Origin: Candidatus Hodarchaeota archaeon
Lineage (GTDB): Archaea > Asgardarchaeota > Heimdallarchaeia > Hodarchaeales > Hodarchaeaceae
Direction of reading: 5' to 3'
Length of the DNA stretch: 64,000 bases
Assembly: GCA_016840035.1 (NCBI GenBank)
Contig: JAEOTC010000086.1
Span: 1-64,000, forward strand
In this document: positions 461 through 21,100 of the stretch, piece after piece
Layout of the letters: every line of letters starts with the position of its first letter
Numbering within the stretch: position 1 is the stretch's first letter
The notes under the pieces: model-generated
What the model was told of the DNA's origin: nothing
Databases searched by the model: none
The model's input: the letters and a program-made list of their open reading frames with translations, nothing else
Program-made: the position numbers and the translations under genes

Positions 461-1123
461 TCAATATTCTTCTGATGTGTGTTTATTTTTTTTATTTTCT
501 TGAAAAGTGGAATATGAAACAATTTCCTTCGCTAAGAGTTTGAATCCTTCATCAACATTTATTCTGTCTTTCGCAGAGGTTTCTAGGTACTGAACAGAAA
601 AACCTAGTTTTTCTTTAAGGAGTTTGGACAATTCTACTGCATATTCTTTCCCATAATGAGTAGGAACTTGATTTGGAAACCCTGGATTATCTCGTAGATC
701 ACATTTGGAACCGATAATTATTAAGGGACTCTTGCCAATTCCGTTTAAAGACCAATAGCTTTGAATCCACTCAACGAGATTCTTGTATGATTCCTGATTA
801 GTCACATCAAAAAAGCATAATGCTCCAACAGCACCATGGTAATAGAGTTTGCGTACCGCTTTAAATCTCGGTTGACCTGCCAAATCCCACACTTTAAATT
901 TTATAGCATAGGTGGTTTTTGTAGGAGGATGATAGTAAGGAACCTCTTGAAGTGCAAAATCAGCGCCAATAGTCATAAGATATTCAGTTTTAAATTCTTC
1001 TCCTAACCATGTACGTCGAAAGGCAGTTTTTCCCACTCCTCCATCACCAATCAGAACAATTTTAGCATGTATTTTCGTTCCTGAGAGAGATCGCGTTCGA
1101 CGTGTTCCTGCTTCTGGACCCAT
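461..1123 (-). CDS. Rab-like small GTPase
   Basis: G1 GDGGVGKT, TIGADF, G3 WDLAGQPRF, YYHGA, variant G4 SKCD, G5 ETSAK. Confidence 0.92.
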   Translation of the reverse strand: MGPEAGTRRTRSLSGTKIHAKIVLIGDGGVGKTAFRRTWLGEEFKTEYLMTIGADFALQEVPYYHPPTKTTYAIKFKVWDLAGQPRFKAVRKLYYHGAVGALCFFDVTNQESYKNLVEWIQSYWSLNGIGKSPLIIIGSKCDLRDNPGFPNQVPTHYGKEYAVELSKLLKEKLGFSVQYLETSAKDRINVDEGFKLLAKEIVSYSTFQENKKNKHTSEEY

Positions 1124-2296: not shown

Positions 2297-4267
2297 ATGG
2301 TGAGGCATCAAGAAATTAAAAAGATGATTTCACAGAATCTCTTCAAAGAGGCATTAATACTTATTAATACTGTAGAAAGCTCTCAAAACATTGATTTAGA
2401 AGAATCAATAGTATATCGTTTTCTTAAGACACAGATACTGGTTAATTGTGGTAAGACCGAAGAAGGATTAGTGTTAGCAGATAAAGCATTAGTTATGGTT
2501 CGAACTCAAACTCCTGTAAACCAGTTATTGCTGCTTAATGCCATTATTACGAAAATTGAAGCTTTACGATGTGCTAAACAATTTGTTCCTACCTATTCTA
2601 GAGGAAACCTGTCACAGCATCTTCTCCTCCTTGAGGAGGGAGAAAGCCTCCTCGAATCCACTTCCGATCTTAAGTCACTGGAGAGAACAGAACGAGTCGC
2701 TATTTTGTTTAGAAATAAAGGGCTAATATTTCGAGCATTAGGAGAGTACGATCGTGCCATAAACACCCTTCAAAAGAGTAAAGCTCTTTATCAGATACTT
2801 GATAAAAAGGGGGAGTTGATTCAAGTACTTCTTGATCTAGCTGAAATCTTTGGATTAATGACTGATTGTAATCGTCAATTAGATATTTTACAAGAGTGTT
2901 TGAATCTTAATCATACTATTAACGATCAAGAAGGGTTTGTTGAAACCTTCCTAAATTTTGCTTCAGTCTATCTGACCCTTGGAGACCTGGAAACTGCTTT
3001 TAGTTATATTCAGAAAACTCACGAATTAATTGAGGGAATTCCAAGTTCCCGACGAATTGCACATTTGTATTTTAATCTCGGACTTTTTTATTACAACGCG
3101 AAAGATCAAACCACTGGTTCTTTTTCTTCTTTTCAACGGAGTTTATCTCTTATGCAGGAATTGGATGATAAGGATGGTATTCAATTATGCAGTCATTTAC
3201 TTGGAGATCTACACCAATATGTCAAAGGGGATTTCAACGAAGCTCTAGAGTATTATGAAAATAGTGAAGCAATTTATCAAGAAAATGGAACCATACTTGT
3301 TCATTGTTGGAACCTTCTTGACATGGGTAATCTCTATCATCTCAAAGGGGATTTAGATGCCGCACTTCTCAATTTTGAGAAAGCTCTTCCACTATTAGAA
3401 GATATCAAAAACGATTTTTATTTCTGTCAAACATTTCTTCATATTGGGCGTGTTTATCGATCGAAAGGAGACAATTCTACTGCATTAGGTTATTATAAGC
3501 AATGTCTAAAAGAATTAGATGAACGACGAGTATATCTTCGTCAAGAAACAGAAGGATTAGCCTTTTATGAGTCAATCGCCGTTATGCTTGACAGTAACGA
3601 TATAAAAGAAGCAAAGAAGTATTTTGAGCGATTTACTCAATTTTATCTCGCGAATTCTCAGAGAAAACAATTCCTTAAACAGTGGTATAACCTTGCCGAA
3701 GCATTAATTCTGAAAAATAGTGTTAGGATCAAGGATAAAGCGCGAGCTCAACAACTCTTTCAAGAGATAATTGACGATCCAAACGTGCAATTCAAGTTGC
3801 TAAATTATTTAGCAGATTCAAAGAGAACAGCCGTACTAAACCTTTGTGAACTCCTTCTTTTTGAGCTTAAATCTTCCTCGGATGAAATTACGGAAAAGAA
3901 CGAAATATTTCAAGAAGTGAAGCAGATTTTGTCCAATCTTGCATTATTAGCTCAAGAACAACATTCTTTCCCTTTACTTGTGGATGTTATAATCCTTCAA
4001 GCTAAATTGGCGTTAATTGAGGGGTTTCCTACAAAATCAATGCAATTCTTATCTCAGGCAAAGATTACTGCAGAGGAGAAAAATCTTCAATTATTATTTC
4101 GAAGAGTTGTTAATGAAGAGGCTATTTTGAAGACTCAATTAAGCATCTGGCAACGATTAATTGAAGAAAATGCTCCACTTCAAGAACGTCTTGCCCAGGC
4201 TCAGGTTGAGGAATATCTTTTGAAAGCAAAAAAAATAGTTAATCTCTCACCTCAAAGTCCTTCTTAA
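2297..4267 (+). CDS. Tetratricopeptide repeat protein
   Basis: Repeated LG.lY...GdydeAl..y.ksl motifs. Confidence 0.9.
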   Translation: MVRHQEIKKMISQNLFKEALILINTVESSQNIDLEESIVYRFLKTQILVNCGKTEEGLVLADKALVMVRTQTPVNQLLLLNAIITKIEALRCAKQFVPTYSRGNLSQHLLLLEEGESLLESTSDLKSLERTERVAILFRNKGLIFRALGEYDRAINTLQKSKALYQILDKKGELIQVLLDLAEIFGLMTDCNRQLDILQECLNLNHTINDQEGFVETFLNFASVYLTLGDLETAFSYIQKTHELIEGIPSSRRIAHLYFNLGLFYYNAKDQTTGSFSSFQRSLSLMQELDDKDGIQLCSHLLGDLHQYVKGDFNEALEYYENSEAIYQENGTILVHCWNLLDMGNLYHLKGDLDAALLNFEKALPLLEDIKNDFYFCQTFLHIGRVYRSKGDNSTALGYYKQCLKELDERRVYLRQETEGLAFYESIAVMLDSNDIKEAKKYFERFTQFYLANSQRKQFLKQWYNLAEALILKNSVRIKDKARAQQLFQEIIDDPNVQFKLLNYLADSKRTAVLNLCELLLFELKSSSDEITEKNEIFQEVKQILSNLALLAQEQHSFPLLVDVIILQAKLALIEGFPTKSMQFLSQAKITAEEKNLQLLFRRVVNEEAILKTQLSIWQRLIEENAPLQERLAQAQVEEYLLKAKKIVNLSPQSPS

Positions 4268-4755: not shown

Positions 4756-7700
4756 ATGAACTATTCCAAAGAGGACGTGGGAAAAATGGTTTCAATAACT
4801 CGTTCAACGGTGAGTTGGTTATGTGTTGTTTGTATTTTGCTACCATTGTTCCCCTCCTCAATTTCCCCACCCTCATCTTCGAACAGTATTCATCTTTCCT
4901 CTTTAAATACTCCCAATGAAAATGGTGGGTATAACCGCTCATTAAGTGAGTATGAAATCCGGAGAAGCGTTCAAGATTCTTTCTTTAATGCAACAGAGGG
5001 TCTAGTTAATTGGTGGCGTGGAGAAGGTACTGCTACCGATACAGTTGGGAATGCCCCTGGTGAATTTATGGGAGAAGTTGCTTATGGACCTGGAATTGCG
5101 GGGCAGGCGTTTCGATTAAATGGGATTGATAGTTTCATTAATATTCCTGATACTCCCTTCTTTAATTTTGAGTTTACCGATTTTACTCTTTCTTTCTGGG
5201 TGAATTTTGCCTCTATAGAGGGGGAGATGATTCTGATTGAAAAGTGGATTGAAAAGCATGGCCCCTTATCTGAAGGTTGGACACTCACTAAATTAGTTGA
5301 TAACACTCTCCTTTTTGCTGCTAATCCCGGTGGTTGCTCCACTCCTCTCTCTTTTATTCCTCTCAATAACTGGATTAATATTGTTGTTACTCGTTCGAGT
5401 GGTAATTTTGAAATTTACTGGAATGCTACATCCCTCGTATCAGCTAGCATCCCTTATATTGTTCCCTCGACATCCTCTATGAAATTTGGTCATCGTGGGA
5501 ATCCGAGTGACACTCCTGGCTCTCTTGGGAATAGTGGGGGGTTTTTCCTTGATGGGTTACTGGATGAAGTACGCATTTACAATCGAGGGATGACTGCAGA
5601 TGAAATCACCTATCATTTTGAGAATTTGATGTCCCCTTTCACATCTTCTCTGGAAGCCTCAAGCAATGAAGATCTGGCTGCTTTGGCAGTTAGTGGGGCA
5701 GGTACTTTTCAAGAACCGTATATTTTAGACAACTGGACTGTTAAAACTCTTGGAGGATCAGGGATTTACATTCATGACACCACGGCCCATTTTATTATTC
5801 AAAATTGTCGGATTGAAACGAATTCTGCGGGAAATGGCATTTTACTTGAAAATGTTGCCCCTGGTACGGCTATTCTAACAAATAATAGCTGTAAGTTCAA
5901 TATACAAGGAATTGAAATAAAAAATTCTCCCAGTACTACACTCCTCAATAATTGGTGTGTCCAGAATATGGATTGTGGAATTTGGCTTCTGCAATCTGGA
6001 GGGTGTACCCTCACGAAGAATACGGCTACTCGTAACTACCGTGGTATTGAAGTAACTAATTCTCTTAATACAATCTTACTTAACAACACCTGTAATCAGA
6101 ATAGTATTGGAGGTATCTGGCTTTGGGCTGGCAGTTCAAATTCCAGGGTTGAATCTAATAGGTGTCAGAATAATACCTATGGTATTCATTTCAATGATGT
6201 AAACAATTGTACTATTCTTGGAAACTACTTATTTAACAATGTTCAGGGATTTTTAGTTCAATCCTGTTCTGAAACAACGTTTTTATCAAATTATATTGCG
6301 TTTAATACCGTGTGTGGAACTTTAGTACGCAATTCTGTCCAGATTACTCTTTCCAATAATTCATTTATCTTTAACGGAGCAAATGCTTCTATTAGTGATG
6401 ACTGGGGTGGTTCTGGGTTAAGTGTAATAGACTCCATAAATGGTTTGATTTCTAACAATCTCTTTTATAATAATACTTTTACAGCCCTGAAATTTTACTT
6501 TTCAGAAGGTTTTTTTATCACTAGTAATAGTTTCATTAAGAATATGCATGGTATCCCCCCAGAAAATGTCTCCCAAGTTTATGAATTTACTTCTCCTTTG
6601 AAAGAGGCAAATATTTTTTCGTATAATTTCTGGGATGATTGGATTCAACCTGATGAGGATAATGATAGCATTGTAGATTATCCGTATCTACTTGGGGGAA
6701 ATGCTGTCAATATGGATTTCTTTCCTCTAACGACCCCAAATCAGTTGGTCGCAAATCAAAATCATCTGTTTTTCCTTCCAGAGGTATGCTCTTCATATAA
6801 AAATAAAATTTTTGATCAAGAGGTGCATATAAGCTGGATAGAGGCTATTGATAGTTATGGCCATTCGATAACCTATACTCTTTATTATTCACTTGATAAT
6901 GGGAGAGAATGGAAGATTATTCAGTCAAATCTTACCTCTCCCGTCTATCTTTGGGACCTTGCCAACATAACTGAAAGTTATGAATGTTTCATTAAAGTCA
7001 TGGCGGTTTGCTCTGAAGAGCAAATTGAGAATACTATTGTTTTTGGGGTTTTCACTATTGATAAATTTGCCCCCCAAGTAGTTTTAGATTGTAAGTCAGT
7101 AATACATGCAGATGATCCAATCCACCTCTCCGTGAGGGATATGTCGTTGGTTTCATTGTCCTGTCTTTGGGATTCTTCTATTATAGCCAACACTCTCTCT
7201 GAATCCTCTCATAATTCCTCCTGGAAATCTTTTCAGGTAGCTCCTCTTTCTACGGAAGGGAATCATACATTGACTATAACTGCAATTGATGCACTGGGAC
7301 GGCAGACAACTCAACTTTTTCGCTTGTACATCAATTCTCCGCCAGTCATTGAGCTTTTGTCCCATCAAAATAATTCGATCCTCCTTATGAATTCTCAAAT
7401 CTCTCTTGATATTTTGGACGAGACATTGATTGATGTTTGGTTCTTCTGGGACTTTCAGATAAGGAAATCTCTTCAACATCCATTTAAAGTTCCATCCTTT
7501 CCCTCTCGCGGTTTTCATACTCTCACTATTGAGGCTCAAGATAGCTGGATGTTTAATTCGACTAGAAAGTATTATTTCTATACCCTCGGGCCAATATTCT
7601 TTGAGCTTACTAAACCTCCTCCTTCAATGGCTTATGCCCGAGAGAGTTTTATTACTTCACTAAGAGTGAGAAATGTTGAATTAATCGACCTTATCTTGAT

Positions 7701-8292
7701 CTTAACAATTTTTGGGACCATAGATGAGGTATTAGAGGGAAATAACTCGTTCCTTATCATTCCTTCACAGGGGGAAGAGATTATTGACATAAAAATCCGG
7801 CCAAAACATGCTAGTCATCATTCACTCACTTTTATTTTGTTCCACGAGGGTTTATCTTATCAAGAGTATGAACTTTCGTTTCATGTTTCCCCCCATTGGA
7901 TGTCTCCCTCCTTTCTTCTCCTGTTGCTCAATATATTGACGATGCTTTTCATTGTAGTAGCTAGCAATCTCTTGATTCTAAGATACTACCTTAGGAGTAG
8001 ATTTTACTGGTCTTCTCATGCAAGATTGAACCAATTGATTGATCAAATTACCCTGTCAAATTTAGAATTGAGGGAGATAGAAGATCTTGCTAACGGCTCC
8101 ACCGCTCCTTCAAATTACCCTCTTGGTTCCCCCCAACGTCTATATCAAAGAAATTGGCAACCTCCTAATCGGGAAATACTTGAAAGACGTTTTCATGTAC
8201 TTCATGATGAAATTAAACAAAGGAATCCGATTAACAAAGAAAAATTGTCAAAATTGCTCAATGAATGTGAAGAATTACTTTGTATGCATTAG
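4756..8292 (+). CDS. Large surface protein: LamG/concanavalin-like domain, NosD-type right-handed beta-helix, Ig/Fn3-like domains, C-terminal TM and cytoplasmic tail
   Basis: FTLSFWV and GLLDEVRIYNR (LamG); many N..GI.l..s.n repeats and NFWDDW..PD.D.D.IVD.PY (NosD); hydrophobic helix near aa 1055-1080. Confidence 0.85.
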   Translation: MNYSKEDVGKMVSITRSTVSWLCVVCILLPLFPSSISPPSSSNSIHLSSLNTPNENGGYNRSLSEYEIRRSVQDSFFNATEGLVNWWRGEGTATDTVGNAPGEFMGEVAYGPGIAGQAFRLNGIDSFINIPDTPFFNFEFTDFTLSFWVNFASIEGEMILIEKWIEKHGPLSEGWTLTKLVDNTLLFAANPGGCSTPLSFIPLNNWINIVVTRSSGNFEIYWNATSLVSASIPYIVPSTSSMKFGHRGNPSDTPGSLGNSGGFFLDGLLDEVRIYNRGMTADEITYHFENLMSPFTSSLEASSNEDLAALAVSGAGTFQEPYILDNWTVKTLGGSGIYIHDTTAHFIIQNCRIETNSAGNGILLENVAPGTAILTNNSCKFNIQGIEIKNSPSTTLLNNWCVQNMDCGIWLLQSGGCTLTKNTATRNYRGIEVTNSLNTILLNNTCNQNSIGGIWLWAGSSNSRVESNRCQNNTYGIHFNDVNNCTILGNYLFNNVQGFLVQSCSETTFLSNYIAFNTVCGTLVRNSVQITLSNNSFIFNGANASISDDWGGSGLSVIDSINGLISNNLFYNNTFTALKFYFSEGFFITSNSFIKNMHGIPPENVSQVYEFTSPLKEANIFSYNFWDDWIQPDEDNDSIVDYPYLLGGNAVNMDFFPLTTPNQLVANQNHLFFLPEVCSSYKNKIFDQEVHISWIEAIDSYGHSITYTLYYSLDNGREWKIIQSNLTSPVYLWDLANITESYECFIKVMAVCSEEQIENTIVFGVFTIDKFAPQVVLDCKSVIHADDPIHLSVRDMSLVSLSCLWDSSIIANTLSESSHNSSWKSFQVAPLSTEGNHTLTITAIDALGRQTTQLFRLYINSPPVIELLSHQNNSILLMNSQISLDILDETLIDVWFFWDFQIRKSLQHPFKVPSFPSRGFHTLTIEAQDSWMFNSTRKYYFYTLGPIFFELTKPPPSMAYARESFITSLRVRNVELIDLILILTIFGTIDEVLEGNNSFLIIPSQGEEIIDIKIRPKHASHHSLTFILFHEGLSYQEYELSFHVSPHWMSPSFLLLLLNILTMLFIVVASNLLILRYYLRSRFYWSSHARLNQLIDQITLSNLELREIEDLANGSTAPSNYPLGSPQRLYQRNWQPPNREILERRFHVLHDEIKQRNPINKEKLSKLLNECEELLCMH

Positions 8293-11649: not shown

Positions 11650-14600
11650 TCAAACTTCTTCAATTAGGTCAGTGGTTTTGTATATCTCCTTATATGATAA
11701 AACAATGTACGAAACAAGATTTCGCAGTTCAATGACTGATTCTAAAATTCCTTCTTTGTTATCTGGTTCATTAGTCATCAACATGTGAATTTTGTGTACA
11801 GCTGATTGCAGCTCCTCTTTAAATTGACTGATCAATGGAAAGATTTCAGGGATAATGAGGATATTTGCAGTGTAATTGTCCGCTCCTCCCCTTGCTTCAG
11901 GATTCTCAATAGAATAGCTATATGACATTGAATTAATACGAATTAGAGATTCTAAGGAGTAATCGAAGCTTGAATACAATTTCGAAGTAAAATCATCTAC
12001 AAAACCGCAACTATTAAACGATCGATCTGATAAGGAAATCAATGGAGGGATATTATCCTGTAAGAGATCAGGGATAACGATCAATGGTAGTGGTCCAGAC
12101 CGCTGATCAAAATAGGAGATTACGATTCCGAGAGAATGGAGATCCAGAGAATTAATTATTTCTTCTTCAGTTATTTTATTGATACCCTTCATAACGAGTC
12201 CTTTATCTAATCCAACGAGTTCAGGTTTACGGATAAACTTAATGTAACTGATAGATCCAATCAATACACAAAGAACGGTAAGTATTGACAACGGGACGAT
12301 CCATTCTGGCAGACCTTGGGGACTAAAGATGAATCGATTTTCGGAGATTCGTTGAGGGAAATTTCTGATATCAAATGCTGTTGGGTTCTCATTTCCATGG
12401 CTATCAGATGTACTAATGTAATAAATTATTTCAAGATCTGACTTATTATGGAGAAATTCTATCGTTGAAACCCAGATTTCATTTCCATTAATTTCGCTCT
12501 GATTTTGATAAATCATGAATGAAGCTTTCCATTCCGATATCCTAGCCCCACTGCCTTCATTCACTGGTTTGAAATAATAATATAAGATAACATCATTAAT
12601 GGTTGAACCATATTCCTCAATTTCCGCATAAAAGGTTAAGGTTTGGGGGTTTATTTCATCGTCTTTTTCAAAGTATGCATTGACCACCCTAGGAGCAACT
12701 TTGTCCTCCGTTGTAAATTCAATATATTTTTGTACAGTTATTTCAAACTCTGTGGAATAATCCACTTTAGATATCACTGTGACATCTATTCGCATTAATT
12801 TTCCTAGATTAGTATAATTTGTGAGTTCATAATCAAGTGTCCATAAAGAACCATTCATTTCAGCCCATTTTGTTGGTTCAATAGTTATGTTTTCAATACT
12901 AAACTGAAATTGTACCTCTGTTATTGGATTTCGAGGATCTGTTACATTTACCCAGAAGGTATAATGACCTTCTCTGTCTGATATAATTTCTATTCCAATT
13001 TCCTCTATTGTGGGTTGGCTTTCTATGATTATAGTTAGATTCATCTGAGTACCAAAGATTTCGTTATCATAAGGTTGAACTTCTACATACCAAGTGTCTC
13101 CATAGGATGTAGCATTCGCTGGAATTCTGCTTAAATTATCATATTGGGAAAGATGGATTTGATTCTGATACCATCGAACTACTGAGCTATCTATATCACC
13201 ATCCACGTCTTGGAAAGCATAACTTAATTGGATTGCTTCGCTTTCAAGTAAAAATTCGGAAAAAATCGTGTCTGTAAATTGCAGATTCGAAATTTCGGGA
13301 GCTTTGTTAATAACCATTATTTCTTGCGATGATTGATTCGCAGACCAGTCTTTTCCATCATAAACTCGCACAATCACAAACCAAATATCCCCCTTAGATA
13401 ATTCTGATTGAGGTATTGTTTCAGAATTGATAAAAGTTTCTTCAGATTCATAATTTCTTATCCAAAGGATGGAATAGCTAACTATTGGGTCTTGATCAGG
13501 GTCATAAATTATTATATCATCATTTAGGTTCAAGGTTAAACTTGAATCTGCGTATGTGACGTTTAAACCGTTGATCAGTGAAATATCTAAAGTAATTGGT
13601 GCGGTATTTAAAATAATGGCTGGGGGTAAAATATATTCTTGACTGTAATCGATAGAATCAAATACTTTCAGATATACTATCCATACCTCATCAGCTGATG
13701 TAGAAGAAGAGTTTACTTCTGTTTTATTTGTTAATTCATCAACAAGAAGACCATTTCGATACCATTTAATCATCCAGGCATTACTTTGATTATCATTATC
13801 ATAATCAACAAATTCCCAGGAAATTTGGAGCTTATCATCAGTATATGGGTCATTTGGGAGAACAACAATATTTTGAGCCTCTGGAATTGCGTTAACTATT
13901 GTAATTGATGTTGAATATTGAATAAGACTGTAATTAGTTCCATCAAAAACGCTTAGAGAAAAATTGATAATATCTCCCCTACTGAGGAGTTCTTTAGATA
14001 AGAAAGTCTGATTTCTTGCCTCAATTACTTCTGTTCCATTTTTATACCAGAAGATCCTTGTAGAATTTAACCATTCAGTATCGGCATCATGATCAGTATA
14101 TGAATAGGCGAAACTTAGATCATTTTGAACAGTTGGAGAACCCTGAGACCATTCTAGAGTGAGAATATTTGGGGGGGTATTTCCGATAATAATTTGAGAC
14201 GAATTGACCCAATATCCATAATCACCGTACCTGTCTCTTGGTCTTACACTGACTATCCAATAATCACCTTTCACCAAATAATCAACTGAGACTGTTGATC
14301 CAGTTAACTCCTCAACAATTATACCATTTCGATACCAGCGGTAGCTAGAACCCACAACTAAACCATTACCATCTACTTCAATATCATAGATGAAAAGCGG
14401 ATGATCCCTATCCTCAGCAGTATAATTTACTGATAGAGGAGTAGATGCGATATATATGCTACTCTCATTGACTCCAAGAATTCTGGGGACTCCTATAATT
14501 TCTGGAATCGCGTTTCCTATTTGGAAATAATCTGTTTGATACATACTCCCCGGTTCTTCACCATCATTTGGAGTGATTTGTGCGTATAGAATATCTCCTG

Positions 14601-17600
14601 CTTTAAAAGATATATATGATAGGTTTTCAGTATTCTGGCCTGATATTACACTCCCATTGATATAATACCAATTAATAATGAATTTCGGTTTATCTTCAGA
14701 ATCGTCATCGACATCTATGAAGGTGTATATTAGTGAAATATTTTGACTTGTATTTTCCCCACCTTGTATGCCTAAATCTTGGATAGAAGGAGGAGTATTG
14801 AGTATATAGGTACTTGATGTAAAATACCATGAAGAGTAGTTCTCACCATCAAAAAGTTGAATAGAACAATTCCACTGTTCTCCTTTTGTGGTAAATTGTG
14901 AGGAGATTTCTGTTAAATTAGCAAACGACGTATTCAATGTACCATTAATATACCAATTAATGGTGAAGTCTTCCTGAATGTCTCCATCGAGGTCATTGAA
15001 GTCCCAATCAACAGTCAGATTATAAATAGTCGTGGTATTCGAAGTATATACTAAATTATCCAATTCTGGACTCGAATTTTGGATTTCTATCTGGGGGGAA
15101 TTATAAATGACCGACCAATTTAATCCATCATACACACTAAGAGTATAGTTCCATATCTGATTTTTCCCTGTAAAACTAGAATCTACTATGAGTGAATTAT
15201 TGAGATTTGGTTGTAATATGCCATTTTTATACCAAAGAACGTTTTTCTGTACCTCTTGGTGGCCATCAGCATCGAAATAACTATAACTAGCAATTAGATC
15301 TTCAATTGTAGTATTGGTGTCTCCTATAAGTTCAAGATTTTGTGCTTCGGGAAGTGTGTTCACATAAGCTCCTATTGAAAGGATCCCAGAGGTATAATTT
15401 GAACTATAATTATACCCATCATACACTCTAATAACATATTGCCATGTTTCTCCAGAAGTTGTTTCCAAACTTAATAAAACTGTATCATTCGTTTTTGATG
15501 AATTCAATATTCCATTCAGATACCAATATACGATTCTCTCAGTTGTATGTTCTGAATCTCCATCACGATCGTCATAATTGTATGTGATATTTATGAAGTC
15601 ACTTGTTGTAACATCCTCGGTCTTGTTAAATGAGGGAACATTGGCTAAGACTGGTATGGAATTGAGAATTGTTGTATTCAAGGAGATATAAGGATTCGAA
15701 TACTCTTCTCCGTCAAATAATTGGACTTCAAACCGATATATTTCCCCTCGTGTTAAGTTCCCTGGTGTGACATAGGTAGCGTTTTCTAACTCGGGGATCT
15801 GCGTCCAAGTGCCAGTCCATCGATACCATCTTATTATAGTTACATCGATAAAATCATCTGGAAAATCCCCATCTATGTCAATAGAAATCCACTCCGCCCG
15901 TAATTCATCACTACTTGTTGGAAATGGAGTAATATTTATATCAGTTACTTCTGCAGGGGTGTTCTGAATGGTTGTTATAGAAGATTTATACTGCTGCGAA
16001 TAATCTATCCCATCTGAAACTTGAAGTGTGTAGTTCCAGCTCTGACCCTTTAAGGTAGCTGTTGATGGAATAACCTTTGCATTCTCAAACATTGGTTGAA
16101 GAATTCCATTTTTATACCAGTGTATAATCCAATTGGAAGATTCATTGTTCCCGTCGATATCATAAAATGTCCAATTCGCAGAAAGAGTTTCATTACTTCT
16201 TGGGTTCATCGTTAATATTAAATTGGATGCCTCTGGTGGATGATTAGGTCCTGTTCCTGTATGCTCTAAAGATGTAAACGTATTCCCCGAAGTATCATTT
16301 ACTATGACGGTAAATTTTAAGAAAAGGTTTTGACCAATAAAAATTGTATCGTTGATATATTCTGAAGCTGTTGGACTCATAACCGCCCATAAGTTGTTTT
16401 TTGGAATCCCATCCACCTCTGTCACATTGACTATAACAACATCAATTTCTCCCCAGCTATCGGAAACATTTGCCTTAAATGTACCATTGTAAGCTAAATT
16501 AGAATAATATTCCCAATCATCTACGTTAGGAATGGTAGAGTCATATGAAAATGTATGATTCTTAATCTCAGAAGGAGAGGTAATGTAGTTATCAGCAGTA
16601 TCTGACGTATTTTCGATGGAAAATGTATAAGTCTGGTTGAATTCCACTATTAACTGCTTAGTCCAAAAGCCTGATCCGTTGTAAGTCATAGTATATTGAG
16701 ATGTATTCACCTCTAATGTAACTTCATTAACATTAGATTGAGAGTCAGTGATATTTGCCCAAAAAATTCCCACTCCTGTTCCTAAATCATCGATACCAAA
16801 ATTGTTAATTTCTGGAGGAGTTTCATCATTATCCCATGAATTCAATAAAGTAATATCTATATTCCATTGGTCTTGAGAGAGATCTGAGCTCTCATTACTG
16901 CCTTTAAAACGAATAGTAAATGTAGATGAGGTTAAGTAATTCTGAACACTGATATTATTCCACGAATTTGCAATTAGATTGGGAATTACAGTTATCCATG
17001 AATCATTCCATACTTCAACTTTGAGGGATTCCGTACCACAGCTACCAGTATAAATTGCTAATTCTGCATAAGGCTTCGTAAATTCTGCTGAGGTCCACTG
17101 TGCTTCAAGATCCAGTTCATATTTTGGCGTGGGAATAATATCGATTTGTAATACTGCCATATTACATTGGTGCTCTCCATATTTATTTGCTGTAGGATCT
17201 TCAGTTCTTAAGAAAATCTTGGTTTGATTAATTTTAAGTTCAGTATCGATAATTGCACTTATGTCAATTTCTTTCCAGGTGAGATTTGCTTCCCCTGAGA
17301 AATCCATTACTTCGCTCCATATACTTCCATTCCATAAATGAACTGAAAAGTACCCATCCATGGGGTAATCCGAATTGGCCTTGCCATAAACACGTAATTT
17401 GACTGAAGTAATTGTCCCGTGTATGTTAATATCTTGGAATCCAAAATCTCCCATTTCATCCCCATTTTTACTACCCACTGCGTTTCCCACAGCATGGACT
17501 TCATTCACAGATGGGGTTGTTTGATTATCCAAATAGGGAGAAGCTCCAGTTTTTGCCCATTTATTTCGATTAATGTCCCATGAGTCAACTGTCAGCTCTA

Positions 17601-18012
17601 TCTGGGTTATTGTATTTGTATCTTCTTCTTTCAACGTATCATAAAGAGAATCAGGCCCATTTTTCTGATTGGTAAAATCTGAATGACTTCCAAAGTCATC
17701 CATATTGTCAATATTTGATACATTGTTGTCCACAGAGTCTTCTTCTGAGTCAATAATTTTTGCGTTTATTCCTCTTAATACCGTATTATTATCATTTCTT
17801 TCATTTTGAGTCATTAAACGAGGGATATTTCCTGGTTCTTTCTCCGTTACCTTTGAATTTTCATGTAATACCCCAAATTCATGCATTAACCTACTGAGAA
17901 TACTCGTTGATTCATGAGAGTTTTCATCCTGAATTGGTAATTCCGTTACTAGGAAATTCATTGAAAGAAATATCATTAGGAGAAGAATTTTGTATTTATA
18001 GAGAGCTTTCAA
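11650..18012 (-). CDS. Giant single-pass receptor-like protein: tandem Ig/cadherin-like repeats, TM, cytoplasmic FLCN/SMCR8-like longin (uDENN) domain
   Basis: Signal peptide; 11 repeats of about 98 aa; TM WIVPLSILTVLCVLIGSISYI followed by KFIRK; tail motifs ISYFDQRSGPLPL and SYSIENPEARGG. Confidence 0.8.
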   Translation of the reverse strand: MKALYKYKILLLMIFLSMNFLVTELPIQDENSHESTSILSRLMHEFGVLHENSKVTEKEPGNIPRLMTQNERNDNNTVLRGINAKIIDSEEDSVDNNVSNIDNMDDFGSHSDFTNQKNGPDSLYDTLKEEDTNTITQIELTVDSWDINRNKWAKTGASPYLDNQTTPSVNEVHAVGNAVGSKNGDEMGDFGFQDINIHGTITSVKLRVYGKANSDYPMDGYFSVHLWNGSIWSEVMDFSGEANLTWKEIDISAIIDTELKINQTKIFLRTEDPTANKYGEHQCNMAVLQIDIIPTPKYELDLEAQWTSAEFTKPYAELAIYTGSCGTESLKVEVWNDSWITVIPNLIANSWNNISVQNYLTSSTFTIRFKGSNESSDLSQDQWNIDITLLNSWDNDETPPEINNFGIDDLGTGVGIFWANITDSQSNVNEVTLEVNTSQYTMTYNGSGFWTKQLIVEFNQTYTFSIENTSDTADNYITSPSEIKNHTFSYDSTIPNVDDWEYYSNLAYNGTFKANVSDSWGEIDVVIVNVTEVDGIPKNNLWAVMSPTASEYINDTIFIGQNLFLKFTVIVNDTSGNTFTSLEHTGTGPNHPPEASNLILTMNPRSNETLSANWTFYDIDGNNESSNWIIHWYKNGILQPMFENAKVIPSTATLKGQSWNYTLQVSDGIDYSQQYKSSITTIQNTPAEVTDINITPFPTSSDELRAEWISIDIDGDFPDDFIDVTIIRWYRWTGTWTQIPELENATYVTPGNLTRGEIYRFEVQLFDGEEYSNPYISLNTTILNSIPVLANVPSFNKTEDVTTSDFINITYNYDDRDGDSEHTTERIVYWYLNGILNSSKTNDTVLLSLETTSGETWQYVIRVYDGYNYSSNYTSGILSIGAYVNTLPEAQNLELIGDTNTTIEDLIASYSYFDADGHQEVQKNVLWYKNGILQPNLNNSLIVDSSFTGKNQIWNYTLSVYDGLNWSVIYNSPQIEIQNSSPELDNLVYTSNTTTIYNLTVDWDFNDLDGDIQEDFTINWYINGTLNTSFANLTEISSQFTTKGEQWNCSIQLFDGENYSSWYFTSSTYILNTPPSIQDLGIQGGENTSQNISLIYTFIDVDDDSEDKPKFIINWYYINGSVISGQNTENLSYISFKAGDILYAQITPNDGEEPGSMYQTDYFQIGNAIPEIIGVPRILGVNESSIYIASTPLSVNYTAEDRDHPLFIYDIEVDGNGLVVGSSYRWYRNGIIVEELTGSTVSVDYLVKGDYWIVSVRPRDRYGDYGYWVNSSQIIIGNTPPNILTLEWSQGSPTVQNDLSFAYSYTDHDADTEWLNSTRIFWYKNGTEVIEARNQTFLSKELLSRGDIINFSLSVFDGTNYSLIQYSTSITIVNAIPEAQNIVVLPNDPYTDDKLQISWEFVDYDNDNQSNAWMIKWYRNGLLVDELTNKTEVNSSSTSADEVWIVYLKVFDSIDYSQEYILPPAIILNTAPITLDISLINGLNVTYADSSLTLNLNDDIIIYDPDQDPIVSYSILWIRNYESEETFINSETIPQSELSKGDIWFVIVRVYDGKDWSANQSSQEIMVINKAPEISNLQFTDTIFSEFLLESEAIQLSYAFQDVDGDIDSSVVRWYQNQIHLSQYDNLSRIPANATSYGDTWYVEVQPYDNEIFGTQMNLTIIIESQPTIEEIGIEIISDREGHYTFWVNVTDPRNPITEVQFQFSIENITIEPTKWAEMNGSLWTLDYELTNYTNLGKLMRIDVTVISKVDYSTEFEITVQKYIEFTTEDKVAPRVVNAYFEKDDEINPQTLTFYAEIEEYGSTINDVILYYYFKPVNEGSGARISEWKASFMIYQNQSEINGNEIWVSTIEFLHNKSDLEIIYYISTSDSHGNENPTAFDIRNFPQRISENRFIFSPQGLPEWIVPLSILTVLCVLIGSISYIKFIRKPELVGLDKGLVMKGINKITEEEIINSLDLHSLGIVISYFDQRSGPLPLIVIPDLLQDNIPPLISLSDRSFNSCGFVDDFTSKLYSSFDYSLESLIRINSMSYSYSIENPEARGGADNYTANILIIPEIFPLISQFKEELQSAVHKIHMLMTNEPDNKEGILESVIELRNLVSYIVLSYKEIYKTTDLIEEV
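13015..16246 (-). repeat. 11 tandem ~98-aa Ig/cadherin-like repeats (coding)
   Basis: Consensus N.pP...(l)...y.y.D.DGD....i.WY.NG......W...v.v.DG.dyS. Confidence 0.85.
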
Positions 18013-18082
18013 TTGTTCCTTCCTCTATACATTATCTCATAGAAGTACTTTTGAATTAAGACACTAACTATCCTATTGTTAA

Positions 18083-18985
18083 TCATACTAGATCTTTCAA
18101 GGCATTAGCTACCTCATCCATTTTAATAAGAATATATTGGAGGGGTGCAACCTTTTTTGCAATTCCTGTCAAAATTATTTCAGATTTTAACCGTTCACAC
18201 ACGAAAATTAGATTATCCGTTTCTAGGTAAGTCTTATAGGTGCTTGAAGTTTTGAATTCGTCTTGAATTCGATCCAAATTACTTAACCACAGGTTTGCGG
18301 GAATTAAAATGGAATCTGCAAGATCACCCTCCTCAAAGACAGGTAATCCTTCTTCGGTATACAAAGCTATTCCTGCTAGTTCTTCAGTGCTTTCAATAAA
18401 TCTCTGTAATACTTCAGAGATGGTTTTAGCTTCAGAGCTTTGAATTATCATTGCTTGAACGATTTCTGCTGTCACCTTATAGATAGTTTTCTCATAAATT
18501 GAAGTCCCACGATAATGGATTTCCATCTGCTCTGGAGGAGTGAAAAACTCAACCAATGTTTCAATAATCTGTGCTCTAGTACCTGGTAAAACAAGGTCCA
18601 TTTTATGAAACAAACAATATATGATCGCATTAGGAGAATATTTCTTCAGTTTATTTACCGCGTTCTTAAAGTAAAATTTACTTGTTGATACTTGATCAAA
18701 ATCTGAAAGATCCACTACCCAAACTAAAATTGCTACGTTATTAAAAATTAATTCTGCTTGTTCTCCGATAAATACGGATATAAAACTCTTTTGTCCCCCA
18801 CAATCGAAGATTTCGAAAGGACTACGAATGATGGTTTTCATAGAACGAGTGTAATTTATTGTCGCTTTGTAATCTTTTACTTCTTCAGGAGATTTACCCT
18901 CAAATGCTACAGATCGAATACTACTTTTTCCACTTGCTCCAAGTCCCATCAATAATAGTTTTTTCGGTTGATCGGCTGTATCCAA
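18083..18985 (-). CDS. RagA/Gtr1-like GTPase with C-terminal roadblock/longin-like domain
   Basis: KLLLMGLGASGKSSIRSVAF (cf. Gtr1 KLLLMGRSGSGKSSMRSIIF), DCGGQ, HKMD, TSIY; tail GIALYTEEGLPV is roadblock-like. Confidence 0.88.
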   Translation of the reverse strand: MDTADQPKKLLLMGLGASGKSSIRSVAFEGKSPEEVKDYKATINYTRSMKTIIRSPFEIFDCGGQKSFISVFIGEQAELIFNNVAILVWVVDLSDFDQVSTSKFYFKNAVNKLKKYSPNAIIYCLFHKMDLVLPGTRAQIIETLVEFFTPPEQMEIHYRGTSIYEKTIYKVTAEIVQAMIIQSSEAKTISEVLQRFIESTEELAGIALYTEEGLPVFEEGDLADSILIPANLWLSNLDRIQDEFKTSSTYKTYLETDNLIFVCERLKSEIILTGIAKKVAPLQYILIKMDEVANALKDLV

Positions 18986-19417: not shown

Positions 19418-21100
19418 ATGATGACAGTTAAAGGATGGGTCGATCGCTCGCGAATAGATGCGCGACTTGGATACAAGATTCTCATTGCAGGTTTAGCTGA
19501 AGCCGGAAAAACGGCCGTTAAACGGCAATTCTTCCTGAAACATAAAACCGAGGAAGTAGATGGTCTTTCAGCAACTTTAAGCTATGAGAGATTATCTGTT
19601 ACAATAGATAAGACCCCTATTACAATCCTTGATCTAGGTGGACAGAAAATTTTTCTCAAGCGATTTCTAACCACTTTTTCTCCTTTCATCTTTAGCTCCG
19701 TTGTTGCACTTATCTTTCTTATTGATGTTTCCCACAGAACTTCAAGAGACAATGCCGTTCAGTATTTTAAAGCCTGTATTGAAAAGCTTCAGACATACTC
19801 AAAAGAAGCCCAGATCTATGTTTTTTTGCATAAGAATGATCTCGTTGAAAATTGGCCAAACTATGAGACCATTCATGATCTTTTAAAAGAAGAATTCCAA
19901 ATTGAATGCAATAAACAGGTAAAATTCTTTAGAACAACAATATTCAACCCGCAGTCAATTGTAGAGAGTTTTGGAAGAGTAATTGAATTATCGATGCCGG
20001 AGTTAAGTCAAAGTGAGTTTGTAGAAGGCCAAGTTATTGGTGAAATTGAAGAATACAGTTCTAAGGAAAAAGTGGTCATATCCTCCTCTTCCCAGACCAA
20101 GAGCGATGAAGAAATATCAGAGCAATTAGAATTTGACGAAGATGAAGATCCAGCTTATTTGGAGAGAATTCAAAGCTTAATGAAGGGATCAATGGTCGAT
20201 GAGTCCATAAAACCAAAAACTTCACATTCTGCTGTGGGAGAGGCAATCACAGAAGAAATGTTAAATGAATCTGAATTAATTCCTCCAGCTTTGAATCAGA
20301 CAGATGAAATATCCACCGAGAAAACACAAGATATTGCAGTGAATCGTGAAATAAGTTCATTAATTGACTATTATGGAATCGATATTGAGATTGCTTCTGC
20401 AGTTGTAAATTCTGGCTTTAAGAGTCTCTTTCAGATGGCTACAACTGCTGGTGTTCCATTACATCTTGTAAGTGATGTTATTACCAAATATATTCCATTC
20501 CTAAAATCACAAGGTCTTGATCTCAATCTTTTAACTCTTGAAAGGCTATTAGATATCTTTTCATCATATTTACGTAAAGATTTTGATGAGAACGGTCTGT
20601 TTTCATGTCTTATTTTTGCAGTAAAAAAGCCAGATTTAACGATTGACCAAATAACCAAGAATTATTTAGTAAAGCCTCAGAGAAAGCCTAAAGGAGTCGG
20701 AGAGCGAGTAAAAACTAGTTCTACGCCTCAAGTTCAACAAGAAATATCTGTTGAATCTGTGAAAGGAATAATTCCTATTCCCAATTCTCAAGGTTTGGGA
20801 TTCAAAGCTAATTTAACAAAGCATCTATTATATCTCACAATATATTGTGAAAATAGAATAGTTAATAGAATTAAACTATCCCCCACAATCTCAATAAAGG
20901 AATTAGTATATCTCTTGACTTTTCAAATGAACTTAGATTCCTTGGGATTTATATATGGTGGTGAGAGATCAATTAATCTATCAGCCCTTATTATTCATGA
21001 TGCATTGTCTCAAATGCGTGAGGCTGGTTTAACATCAACCTGTGATATTAAAGGAGTCAATATTCCAAAGATTATGAAGAGTTATTCTGAGTCTGAATAA
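19418..21100 (+). CDS. Rag/Arf-like GTPase with acidic linker and unknown C-terminal domain
   Basis: GLAEAGKT, DLGGQ, HKND, TTIF within first ~190 aa. Confidence 0.8.
   Translation: MMTVKGWVDRSRIDARLGYKILIAGLAEAGKTAVKRQFFLKHKTEEVDGLSATLSYERLSVTIDKTPITILDLGGQKIFLKRFLTTFSPFIFSSVVALIFLIDVSHRTSRDNAVQYFKACIEKLQTYSKEAQIYVFLHKNDLVENWPNYETIHDLLKEEFQIECNKQVKFFRTTIFNPQSIVESFGRVIELSMPELSQSEFVEGQVIGEIEEYSSKEKVVISSSSQTKSDEEISEQLEFDEDEDPAYLERIQSLMKGSMVDESIKPKTSHSAVGEAITEEMLNESELIPPALNQTDEISTEKTQDIAVNREISSLIDYYGIDIEIASAVVNSGFKSLFQMATTAGVPLHLVSDVITKYIPFLKSQGLDLNLLTLERLLDIFSSYLRKDFDENGLFSCLIFAVKKPDLTIDQITKNYLVKPQRKPKGVGERVKTSSTPQVQQEISVESVKGIIPIPNSQGLGFKANLTKHLLYLTIYCENRIVNRIKLSPTISIKELVYLLTFQMNLDSLGFIYGGERSINLSALIIHDALSQMREAGLTSTCDIKGVNIPKIMKSYSESE

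Follow-up and report, generated by a model that had tools for sequence, protein, structure and literature searches.

Evidence for a folliculin-type longin domain with a candidate arginine finger in the cytoplasmic tail of a giant Asgard archaeal surface protein encoded beside Rag-like GTPases

In eukaryotic nutrient sensing, Rag and Arf GTPases are under the control of folliculin (FLCN), GATOR1 and C9orf72-SMCR8, whose mutation leads to tumour and neurodegenerative syndromes. The eukaryotic GAPs of this kind contain a second, non-catalytic longin subunit, namely FNIP with FLCN, C9orf72 with SMCR8 and NPRL3 with NPRL2. In NPRL2, the counterpart of the conserved arginine of the b4-b5 loop is R78. 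According to Tang et al., SMCR8 R147 lies in the bL4-bL5 loop and is equated with FLCN R164; in addition, the SMCR8 longin is inactive by itself, eukaryotic GAP longins depending on a second subunit of the longin type. In FLCN, residues 10–16 contact RagC, and the mutation F10D abolishes the GAP activity.

For the Asgard archaea, the available text of a recent article (Traffic 2025, PMC12290439) describes soluble folliculin/SMCR8-type longins, notably heimdallarchaeial ones, which carry a GP motif and an arginine finger. That text locates the GP motif in the loop ahead of strand b2 or at its start and reports that GP and Arg occur together only in GAP-type longins and not in GEF-type ones; a possible GAP activity is raised, and the choice between Arf-related and Rag/Gtr partners is left as a question. 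Tran et al. (PMC10933270) have reported longin-GTPase fusions in MK-D1, with GTPase genes generally located outside the longin/roadblock operons, and longin/roadblock dimers act chiefly as GEFs or scaffolds (PMC10933270).

The window analysed here is the whole stretch of 64,000 nucleotides from Candidatus Hodarchaeota archaeon, with ~35% G+C across it. It encodes a giant single-pass surface protein, called the receptor below, in which a signal-like N-terminal segment is followed by extracellular repeats spanning ~1900 residues, a single TM helix and a cytoplasmic tail. The ectodomain (~1900 residues) has zero matches to Pfam families. Since the hydrophobic segment 1901–1926 is followed by the basic KFIRK (positive inside), residues 1925–2120 have been placed in the cytoplasm. 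The features of the receptor are the following.

11650..18012, minus strand: receptor gene, 2120 residues (ORF list and translation)
12235..12312, minus strand: TM helix, residues 1901–1926 (hydrophobic segment in the sequence, then the basic KFIRK)
11653..12240, minus strand: cytoplasmic tail, residues 1925–2120, or 1–196 in tail numbering (family domain)
11680..12135, minus strand: longin core, residues 1960–2111, with the order b1-b2-a1-b3-b4-b5-a2-a3
12091..12096, minus strand: GP motif G1973-P1974 within F-D-Q-x-x-G-P-x-P, at the start of strand b2 (conservation, contacts in the complex model)
12016..12033, minus strand: helix a1 motif L-S-D-R-S-F, residues 1994–1999 (family-specific; predicted to lie on GTPase switch II)
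11875..11895, minus strand: b4-b5 loop A-R-G-G-A-D-N, residues 2040–2046, candidate arginine finger (conservation, fold model)
11890..11892, minus strand: codon AGG of R2041 (tail R117), candidate catalytic arginine (conservation, complex model)

An earlier note on this DNA had read two strings of the tail as a folliculin/SMCR8-type motif with an arginine finger, by comparison with human SMCR8 and FLCN sequences. Both strings and the Arg codon have been located: GIVISYFDQRSGPLPLIVIP covers receptor residues 1962–1981 (window 12070–12129, minus strand), and MSYSYSIENPEARGG covers residues 2029–2043 (window 11884–11928, minus strand) with AGG at 11890–11892. The human strings given there are exact: SMCR8 residues 57–76 are FILISEFSEQVGPQPLLTIP, and FLCN residues 152–178 include DSLARGF, in which the Arg is position 164. 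Within FLCN residues 1–26, F10 and G15-P16 are also present. Around the arginine, F-F-I-K-D-S-L-A-R-G-F-Q-R-W-Y-S of FLCN can be set against Y-S-I-E-N-P-E-A-R-G-G-A-D-N-Y-T of the tail; in both, a strand leads through a short polar turn to A-R-G, and four residues later Y-S/T starts the next strand.

The fold of the tail was modelled with AF2 on a 67-sequence alignment (A2), and the model shows a longin topology with a pLDDT of 91.7 and a pTM of 0.88. A model made from the single tail sequence was unusable (pLDDT 41.9). In tail numbering, two juxtamembrane helices are followed by b1 (36–45), b2 (49–56), a1 (58–78), b3 (88–96), b4 (100–112), b5 (120–129), a2 (134–157) and a3 (162–187). G49-P50 (G1973-P1974) opens strand b2, and R117 (R2041) is situated in the loop between b4 and b5, which, comparing the model topology with the description of Tang et al., is the loop of SMCR8 R147 and FLCN R164.

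When the model was compared by a structural aligner with 48,161 representative chains, longins filled the top of the search. The longins of GAP complexes lead with Z values of 11.6 (FLCN), 11.1 (7o2w_A), 10.9 (8fw5_B), 10.7 (Lst4), 10.2 (8adl_S) and 9.8 (SMCR8), while DENND1A (9.0), AP5 sigma (8.6), TRAPP (8.3) and VAMP7 (7.8) follow, and the Mon1-Ccz1 longins are outranked as well. That is, the tail is nearer to the GAP-complex longins than to the GEF, adaptor and SNARE longins, by modest margins of 1–3 Z units. Sequence identity to FLCN in this search is ~13%. Against FLCN, the structural alignment opens with model residue 36 opposite FLCN residue 2, and its ungapped extension would pair F44, G49 and P50 of the tail with F10, G15 and P16 of FLCN, the aligner giving the range ends only. 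By Foldseek E-value, LOV/PAS domains came first, with a TM of ~0.3 and an rmsd of 12–32 Å, which we regard as a generic alpha/beta resemblance; the geometrically better matches were 8yqg, the active FLCN complex 8dhb, and GATOR1. The nearest solved archaeal longin, 8yqg, has kept the GP but lacks an Arg where R2041 aligns, which indicates that the arginine is not required by the fold.

To see how widely the tail occurs, 1.84 billion representatives were searched exhaustively with HMMER, and 147 clusters match, 76 of them at E < 1e-30. The match is nearly always located at the extreme C-terminus, in proteins of 200–5800 residues. Among 400 Asgard genomes, 91 contain matches to the tail profile. 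Strong matches (~E 1e-28 or better) occur in 20 of 21 genomes of the window's genus, usually with at least 5 copies, as well as in two other families of the class (22/31 and 9/12 genomes) and a few further genomes; the matches in other Asgard classes are weak (E 1e-6 to 1e-10).

We have evaluated conservation in an alignment of 146 sequences, i.e., 145 representative clusters at 50% identity and the window's tail. The residue at R2041 is Arg in 128 of the 132 sequences which have a residue there, and the family loop pattern A-R-G-G-x-E-N is found almost throughout. At the other motif, G1973 and P1976 are kept as Gly and Pro in all 124 sequences (124/124 each), and P1974 in 120/124. In helix a1, both D1996 and F1999 are retained in 121/129, and the a3 arginine R2097 in 132/132. 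Judged from these aligned sequences, both tail motifs exceed what chance would produce, and the observation made in the earlier note is confirmed.

In the PDB, the family profiles (A2 and A3) find 8yqg alone and miss FLCN, SMCR8 and NPRL2, and phmmer of the tail against PDB sequences gave zero matches. Searched against Pfam, the window's tail does not match Folliculin at E up to 1. Its sole Pfam match is GAT, which covers the a2-a3 helices at 17.3 bits versus a cut-off of 31 bits and was treated as spurious. Among the 67 members of the A2 alignment, 26 match Folliculin (PF11704; best E 5.2e-6), and any other Pfam family is matched by at most 2.

The weakly matching proteins of other Asgard classes are soluble, 470–485 residues long, and composed of an N-terminal longin followed by a Gtr1/RagA GTPase. 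These fusions score 25.5–25.7 bits with Folliculin (cut-off 23.3), and the F, the G-P and the R-G are invariant across the longin-GTPase fusions. In other variants, a Ras-type GTPase (L054), an Arf-type GTPase (L050) or a DENN-like region comes after the longin. The window's own genome encodes a soluble protein of 441 residues above the Folliculin cut-off too (with the fusion-type relatives, 25.5–26.9 versus 23.3 bits).

In the window itself, two Rag-like GTPase genes lie close to the receptor gene.

18013..18082, minus strand: spacer of 70 bp from the Rag1 gene to the receptor gene (sequence)
18083..18985, minus strand: Rag1, a 300-residue GTPase of Gtr1/RagA type with a C-terminal roadblock (Pfam Gtr1_RagA, E 8.4e-40)
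19418..21100, plus strand: Rag2, a divergent 560-residue GTPase of Gtr1/RagA type with a long C-terminal extension (Gtr1_RagA, E 1.5e-28; alignment A5)

The Gtr1_RagA scores are 137 bits for Rag1 and 100 bits for Rag2, compared with a cut-off of 22 bits. In 61 homologues of Rag1, the P-loop, DxxGQ and the G4 motif HKxD (H127-K128-x-D130) are invariant. The source names of these homologues are Hodarchaeales, Heimdallarchaeota and Promethearchaeota, and one source calls a homologue 'Roadblock/LC7/MglB'. An SD-like GAGGAAGG is situated ~7 nt upstream of the TTG start of the receptor; together with the short spacer, this site is consistent with one transcript for Rag1 and the receptor. A promoter/terminator scan with bacterial models, which are inapplicable to an archaeon, did no better than on shuffles. 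Among the ORFs of the neighbourhood, Pfam revealed no second longin gene near the receptor. We propose Rag1 as the substrate of the tail, and Rag2 is a possible second partner or substrate.

The adjacency of receptor and Rag-like genes recurs. The own genome contains a second complete receptor paralogue (C188, 3597 residues), which a Rag1-type gene adjoins, although Rag-like genes number only 12 in the whole genome. Synteny was further sampled in 40 stretches of other genomes. Fifteen of the receptor loci belong to other genera of the class, and 12 of these 15 have a Rag-like gene immediately beside the receptor. In most of those 12, a co-oriented long Rag-like gene starts 40–100 bp after the receptor, with a second one convergent. 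For the window's genus and one outlier genome, the Rag pair is present at 3 of 16 sampled loci and 13 have no Rag-like neighbour; at two of the three, L068 and L061, close homologues of both Rag1 and Rag2 stand beside the receptor. The receptor family is expanded in the window's genus, with most copies unlinked. Overall, the linkage is seen in at least 5 genera, where related genomes are non-independent samples.

We have further modelled a complex of Rag1 (alignment A4, 61 rows) and tail residues 30–190 (A2) with GTP and Mg. Its score is 0.64, compared with 0.01 for the best of 3 controls. Of the solved complexes, 58 of 80 attain this mark, as do 2 of 110 mismatched pairs; for the present model these counts are approximate, since it was built with our own alignments and a riding ligand. 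Between runs the contacts agree to at least 97%, and the pLDDT of the partner is at least 86. The predicted interface is formed on the Rag1 side by the P-loop (15–17), switch I (38–44) and switch II (65–68 and 71, including Q65), and on the tail side by the GP turn (44–51), helix a1 (within 68–80: residues 68, 71–72, 75–76 and 79–80) and the Arg loop (117–122). In the model, tail residues 44–51 of the GP turn contact Q65-F68 of Rag1, R117 (R2041) touches P-loop residue 17 with an expected error of 2.2 Å, and G118 is in contact with switch I residue 40. An arginine finger would be expected to sit as R2041 does in this model. As the FLCN-RagC (8dhb), GATOR1-Rag and C9orf72-SMCR8-ARF1 (7mge) complexes have been solved, the pass may reflect memory; what it shows is a predicted likeness to solved complexes, and not proof of binding by the Rag1-tail pair. 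The equivalence of R2041 with FLCN R164 rests on the topology, the motif similarity and this complex model.

Taken together, fold, topology, conservation, family signal, gene context, fusions and the modelled interface support the folliculin/SMCR8-type reading made in the earlier note, namely that the tail is a longin domain of the folliculin/SMCR8/NPRL2 type with a Gly-Pro turn and an Arg in the finger position. The best explanation of the locus, to which we assign a probability of about 0.6, is a membrane-held folliculin-type longin tail that acts as an arginine-finger GAP on the adjacent Rag-like GTPase. In such a mechanism, the last 196 residues would make up a longin domain kept at the cytoplasmic side of the membrane, and the tail would most likely bind the GTP-bound form of the neighbouring Rag-like GTPase. 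Switch I and switch II would be covered by the G1973-P1974 turn and helix a1, and from the b4-b5 loop R2041 would enter the nucleotide pocket, where as an arginine finger it would accelerate GTP hydrolysis. The giant ectodomain may decide where and when this happens, e.g., by clustering or dimerising the tails. The tail is probably catalytically competent; we infer the identity of the substrate, which may be Rag1, Rag2 or both, and likewise the control by the ectodomain. Against the explanation speak the window tail's lack of a Folliculin match, the inactivity of the SMCR8 longin by itself combined with the lack of a partner longin gene in the neighbourhood, the 13 of 16 sampled loci of the genus at which no Rag-like gene adjoins, and, for the choice of Rag1, the greater resemblance of the fused GTPases to Rag2.

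An alternative that we consider rather unlikely is that the tail is a GAP for a GTPase other than Rag1. Rag2 could be the target, alone or as a heterodimer with Rag1, or else an Arf- or Ras-type GTPase whose gene lies outside this locus. In the longin-Rag fusions, the GTPase part matches Rag2 better than Rag1 (e.g. 55 versus 27 bits), the longin is also joined to Ras-type and Arf-type GTPases, and 13 of 16 paralogue loci sampled in the genus are without a Rag neighbour. CSW, moreover, acts on Arf and Rab GTPases. However, the Rag1 gene is located 70 bp upstream of the receptor gene on the same strand, the C188 paralogue is also adjoined by a Rag1-type gene, and the Rag1-tail model has beaten its controls.

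It is improbable, in our estimation, that the tail serves as a non-catalytic GTPase platform, which would tether one or more Rag-like GTPases like Ragulator or act as an exchange factor, with the arginine used for binding. The longin and roadblock dimers are mainly GEFs or scaffolds (PMC10933270, introduction), FLCN-FNIP2 also forms an inactive Rag complex with the finger unengaged, a permanently membrane-anchored tail resembles a scaffold, and the complex model gives an interface rather than chemistry. Yet GP and Arg together are reported in the available text of PMC12290439 as GAP-type-specific and absent in GEF-type longins, the GAP-complex longins rank above DENND1A, TRAPP and Mon1-Ccz1 in the structure search, and the model puts R2041 against the P-loop and switch I rather than at the periphery of the interface.

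Very improbable is a role in sorting or turnover of the surface protein, as for the longins in SNAREs and adaptor sigma subunits, in which Arg and GP would be structural and no GTPase would be switched: the very diverse ectodomains attached to the tail family would suit it, but 8yqg keeps the fold without the Arg, Rag-like synteny extends across several genera, longin-GTPase fusions exist in other Asgards, and Folliculin is the only recurring Pfam family.

If the tail is an arginine-finger GAP on the adjacent Rag-like GTPase, a further and more tentative idea, which we hold as possible though doubtful, is that these proteins are true transmembrane receptor-GAPs. Binding to or clustering of the ectodomain would then control a folliculin-type finger that switches off a Rag-like pair at the plasma membrane, and the system would be an archaeal forerunner of FLCN/GATOR1-Rag predating lysosomes.

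As the receptor gene stands directly behind a Rag-like gene, it provides a concrete regulator-GTPase pair to test. Such a pairing is rare in genome layout according to Tran et al. (PMC10933270), and here it is supported by the conserved Rag adjacency, the fusions in other Asgards and the predicted finger-in-pocket interface. The architecture is unexpected in that a giant surface protein would carry the regulator as its cytoplasmic tail. Whether Asgard longins are Rag GAPs could thereby be addressed directly, using three small recombinant proteins. The locus also suggests surface-to-GTPase signalling in the closest archaeal relatives of eukaryotes.

Among the closest known systems is FLCN (yeast Lst7), the catalytic subunit of the FLCN-FNIP GAP for RagC/D (PF11704; 6nzd, 8dhb). 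The tail has in common with FLCN the F-x4-G-P turn at b1-b2, the A-R-G in the b4-b5 loop and the association with Gtr1/RagA-type GTPases, and like yeast Lst7 it is a longin without a DENN domain. Unlike FLCN, it is covalently anchored in the membrane as the end of a 2120-residue surface protein, it does not have the insertion between FLCN residues 25 and ~85, no FNIP-like partner was found among the neighbourhood genes, and the window's tail is below Pfam detection. The other longin-type GAP subunits are SMCR8 (with C9orf72) and NPRL2 (with NPRL3) (6lt0, 7o2w, 8fw5). The b1-b2 region of SMCR8, FILISEFSEQVGPQPLLTIP, closely resembles GIVISYFDQRSGPLPLIVIP of the tail, and the arginine finger position in the bL4-bL5 loop is alike. 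Unlike the tail, SMCR8 and NPRL2 have DENN or other C-terminal domains, are obligate heterodimers, and are soluble proteins recruited to lysosomes. The archaeal 8yqg is the longin of a Lokiarchaeal Roadblock-Longin protein; it is without the Arg, and is a roadblock fusion, not a TM receptor.

The soluble Asgard longins of PMC12290439, as described in its available text, belong to the same class and have both signature motifs in common with the tail. In that text the word 'transmembrane' is absent, and no neighbouring GTPase gene is named as a partner. Unlike those longins, the present domain forms the cytoplasmic end of giant surface proteins, and Rag-type GTPases are either its genomic neighbours or its fusion partners. 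In the literature searched, neither the occurrence of this longin as the cytoplasmic tail of TM surface proteins nor its synteny with Rag-type genes is described, and these two features are what is new at the present locus.

Besides the candidate arginine finger, a second arginine of the receptor tail, R2097 (window 11722-11724; tail residue 173, in helix a3), is invariant in the family (132 of 132). It is absent from the residues listed for the interface predicted with Rag1, and it could serve the structure of the domain or belong to a dimer contact.

Around the receptor, the window carries further genes. Those for a Ras-family GTPase and a TPR protein lie a few kilobases from it, and that for an LVIVD-repeat protein lies downstream of it.

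Genes around the receptor in the window
461-1123 (-), Ras-family small GTPase with N-terminal extension (E 1.4e-38)
2297-4267 (+), TPR protein of 656 residues with a MalT-like TPR region
4756-8292 (+), second large surface protein, 1178 residues
10182-11390 (-), LVIVD-repeat (beta-propeller) protein of 402 residues with a C-terminal membrane anchor

The surface protein combines Laminin_G_3, NosD/right-handed beta-helix and PKD-like parts with a C-terminal TM helix, followed by a short cytoplasmic tail that is unlike the receptor's in kind. At another locus (L068, positions 11946-13154), an ORF of 402 residues likewise lies downstream of the receptor.

The receptor has further counterparts in the same genome, and in some genomes tail-bearing receptor genes are duplicated or triplicated in tandem, with a Rag-like pair after the last copy.

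Further receptors and Rag genes of the window's genome, and tandem receptor genes elsewhere
C188:12120-24020 (L076), second giant receptor of 3597 residues, with an adjacent, divergent Rag1-type gene
C157:312-3581 (L077), further divergent Rag1/Rag2 pair, located where a short contig begins
C82:2486-4681 (L078), third receptor, incomplete at the contig end
L041:4027-13628, tandem receptor genes
L042:3080-12634, tandem receptor genes
G022:C160, tandem receptor genes, three tail matches ~5 kb apart

For the C157 pair, a receptor gene may have been lost to the contig edge. Of the tail domain, only the C-terminal half is matched (E 4e-27) by a 75-residue ORF (L058:7167-7394, +) that lies downstream of a complete receptor gene, at a distance of ~1 kb; this ORF is probably a gene remnant. 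The tails at G397:C4:38014-38901 (L071), with Rag-like genes on either side, are just as similar as tails from the window's genus (E 4.5e-86). Their genome is placed in another family of the phylum, an observation that could stem from misbinning, misclassification or gene transfer.

Directly upstream of the receptor, the other genera of the class have a conserved gene that encodes ~240-255 residues.

Upstream gene
L035:3259-3990 (+)
L036:3295-4014 (+)
L037:7879-8646 (-)
Equivalents in L038, L039, L041, L042, L072 and L074

Its matches to the Ras family are weak and partial: against a cut-off of 21.6 bits, two of three genes tested score ~27.7 and the remaining one 18.9. The gene could represent a degenerate small GTPase, in which case it would be a third GTPase-like gene of the cluster.

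In other Asgard lineages, the GP/Arg longin of the tail occurs in soluble fusion proteins at seven loci.

Soluble longin proteins
L047:4451-5860, fusion
L048:1924-3366, fusion
L049:3145-4602 (-), fusion
L052:3761-5173, fusion
L054:1787-2854 (-), fusion with a Ras-type GTPase
L050:4377-5351, fusion with an Arf-type GTPase
L053:2966-4135 (-), soluble longin protein

Four carry a Gtr1/RagA GTPase, one each a Ras-type and an Arf-type GTPase, and the remaining protein has a weak DENN-like region C-terminal to the longin, a layout that resembles the longin and DENN arrangement of folliculin.
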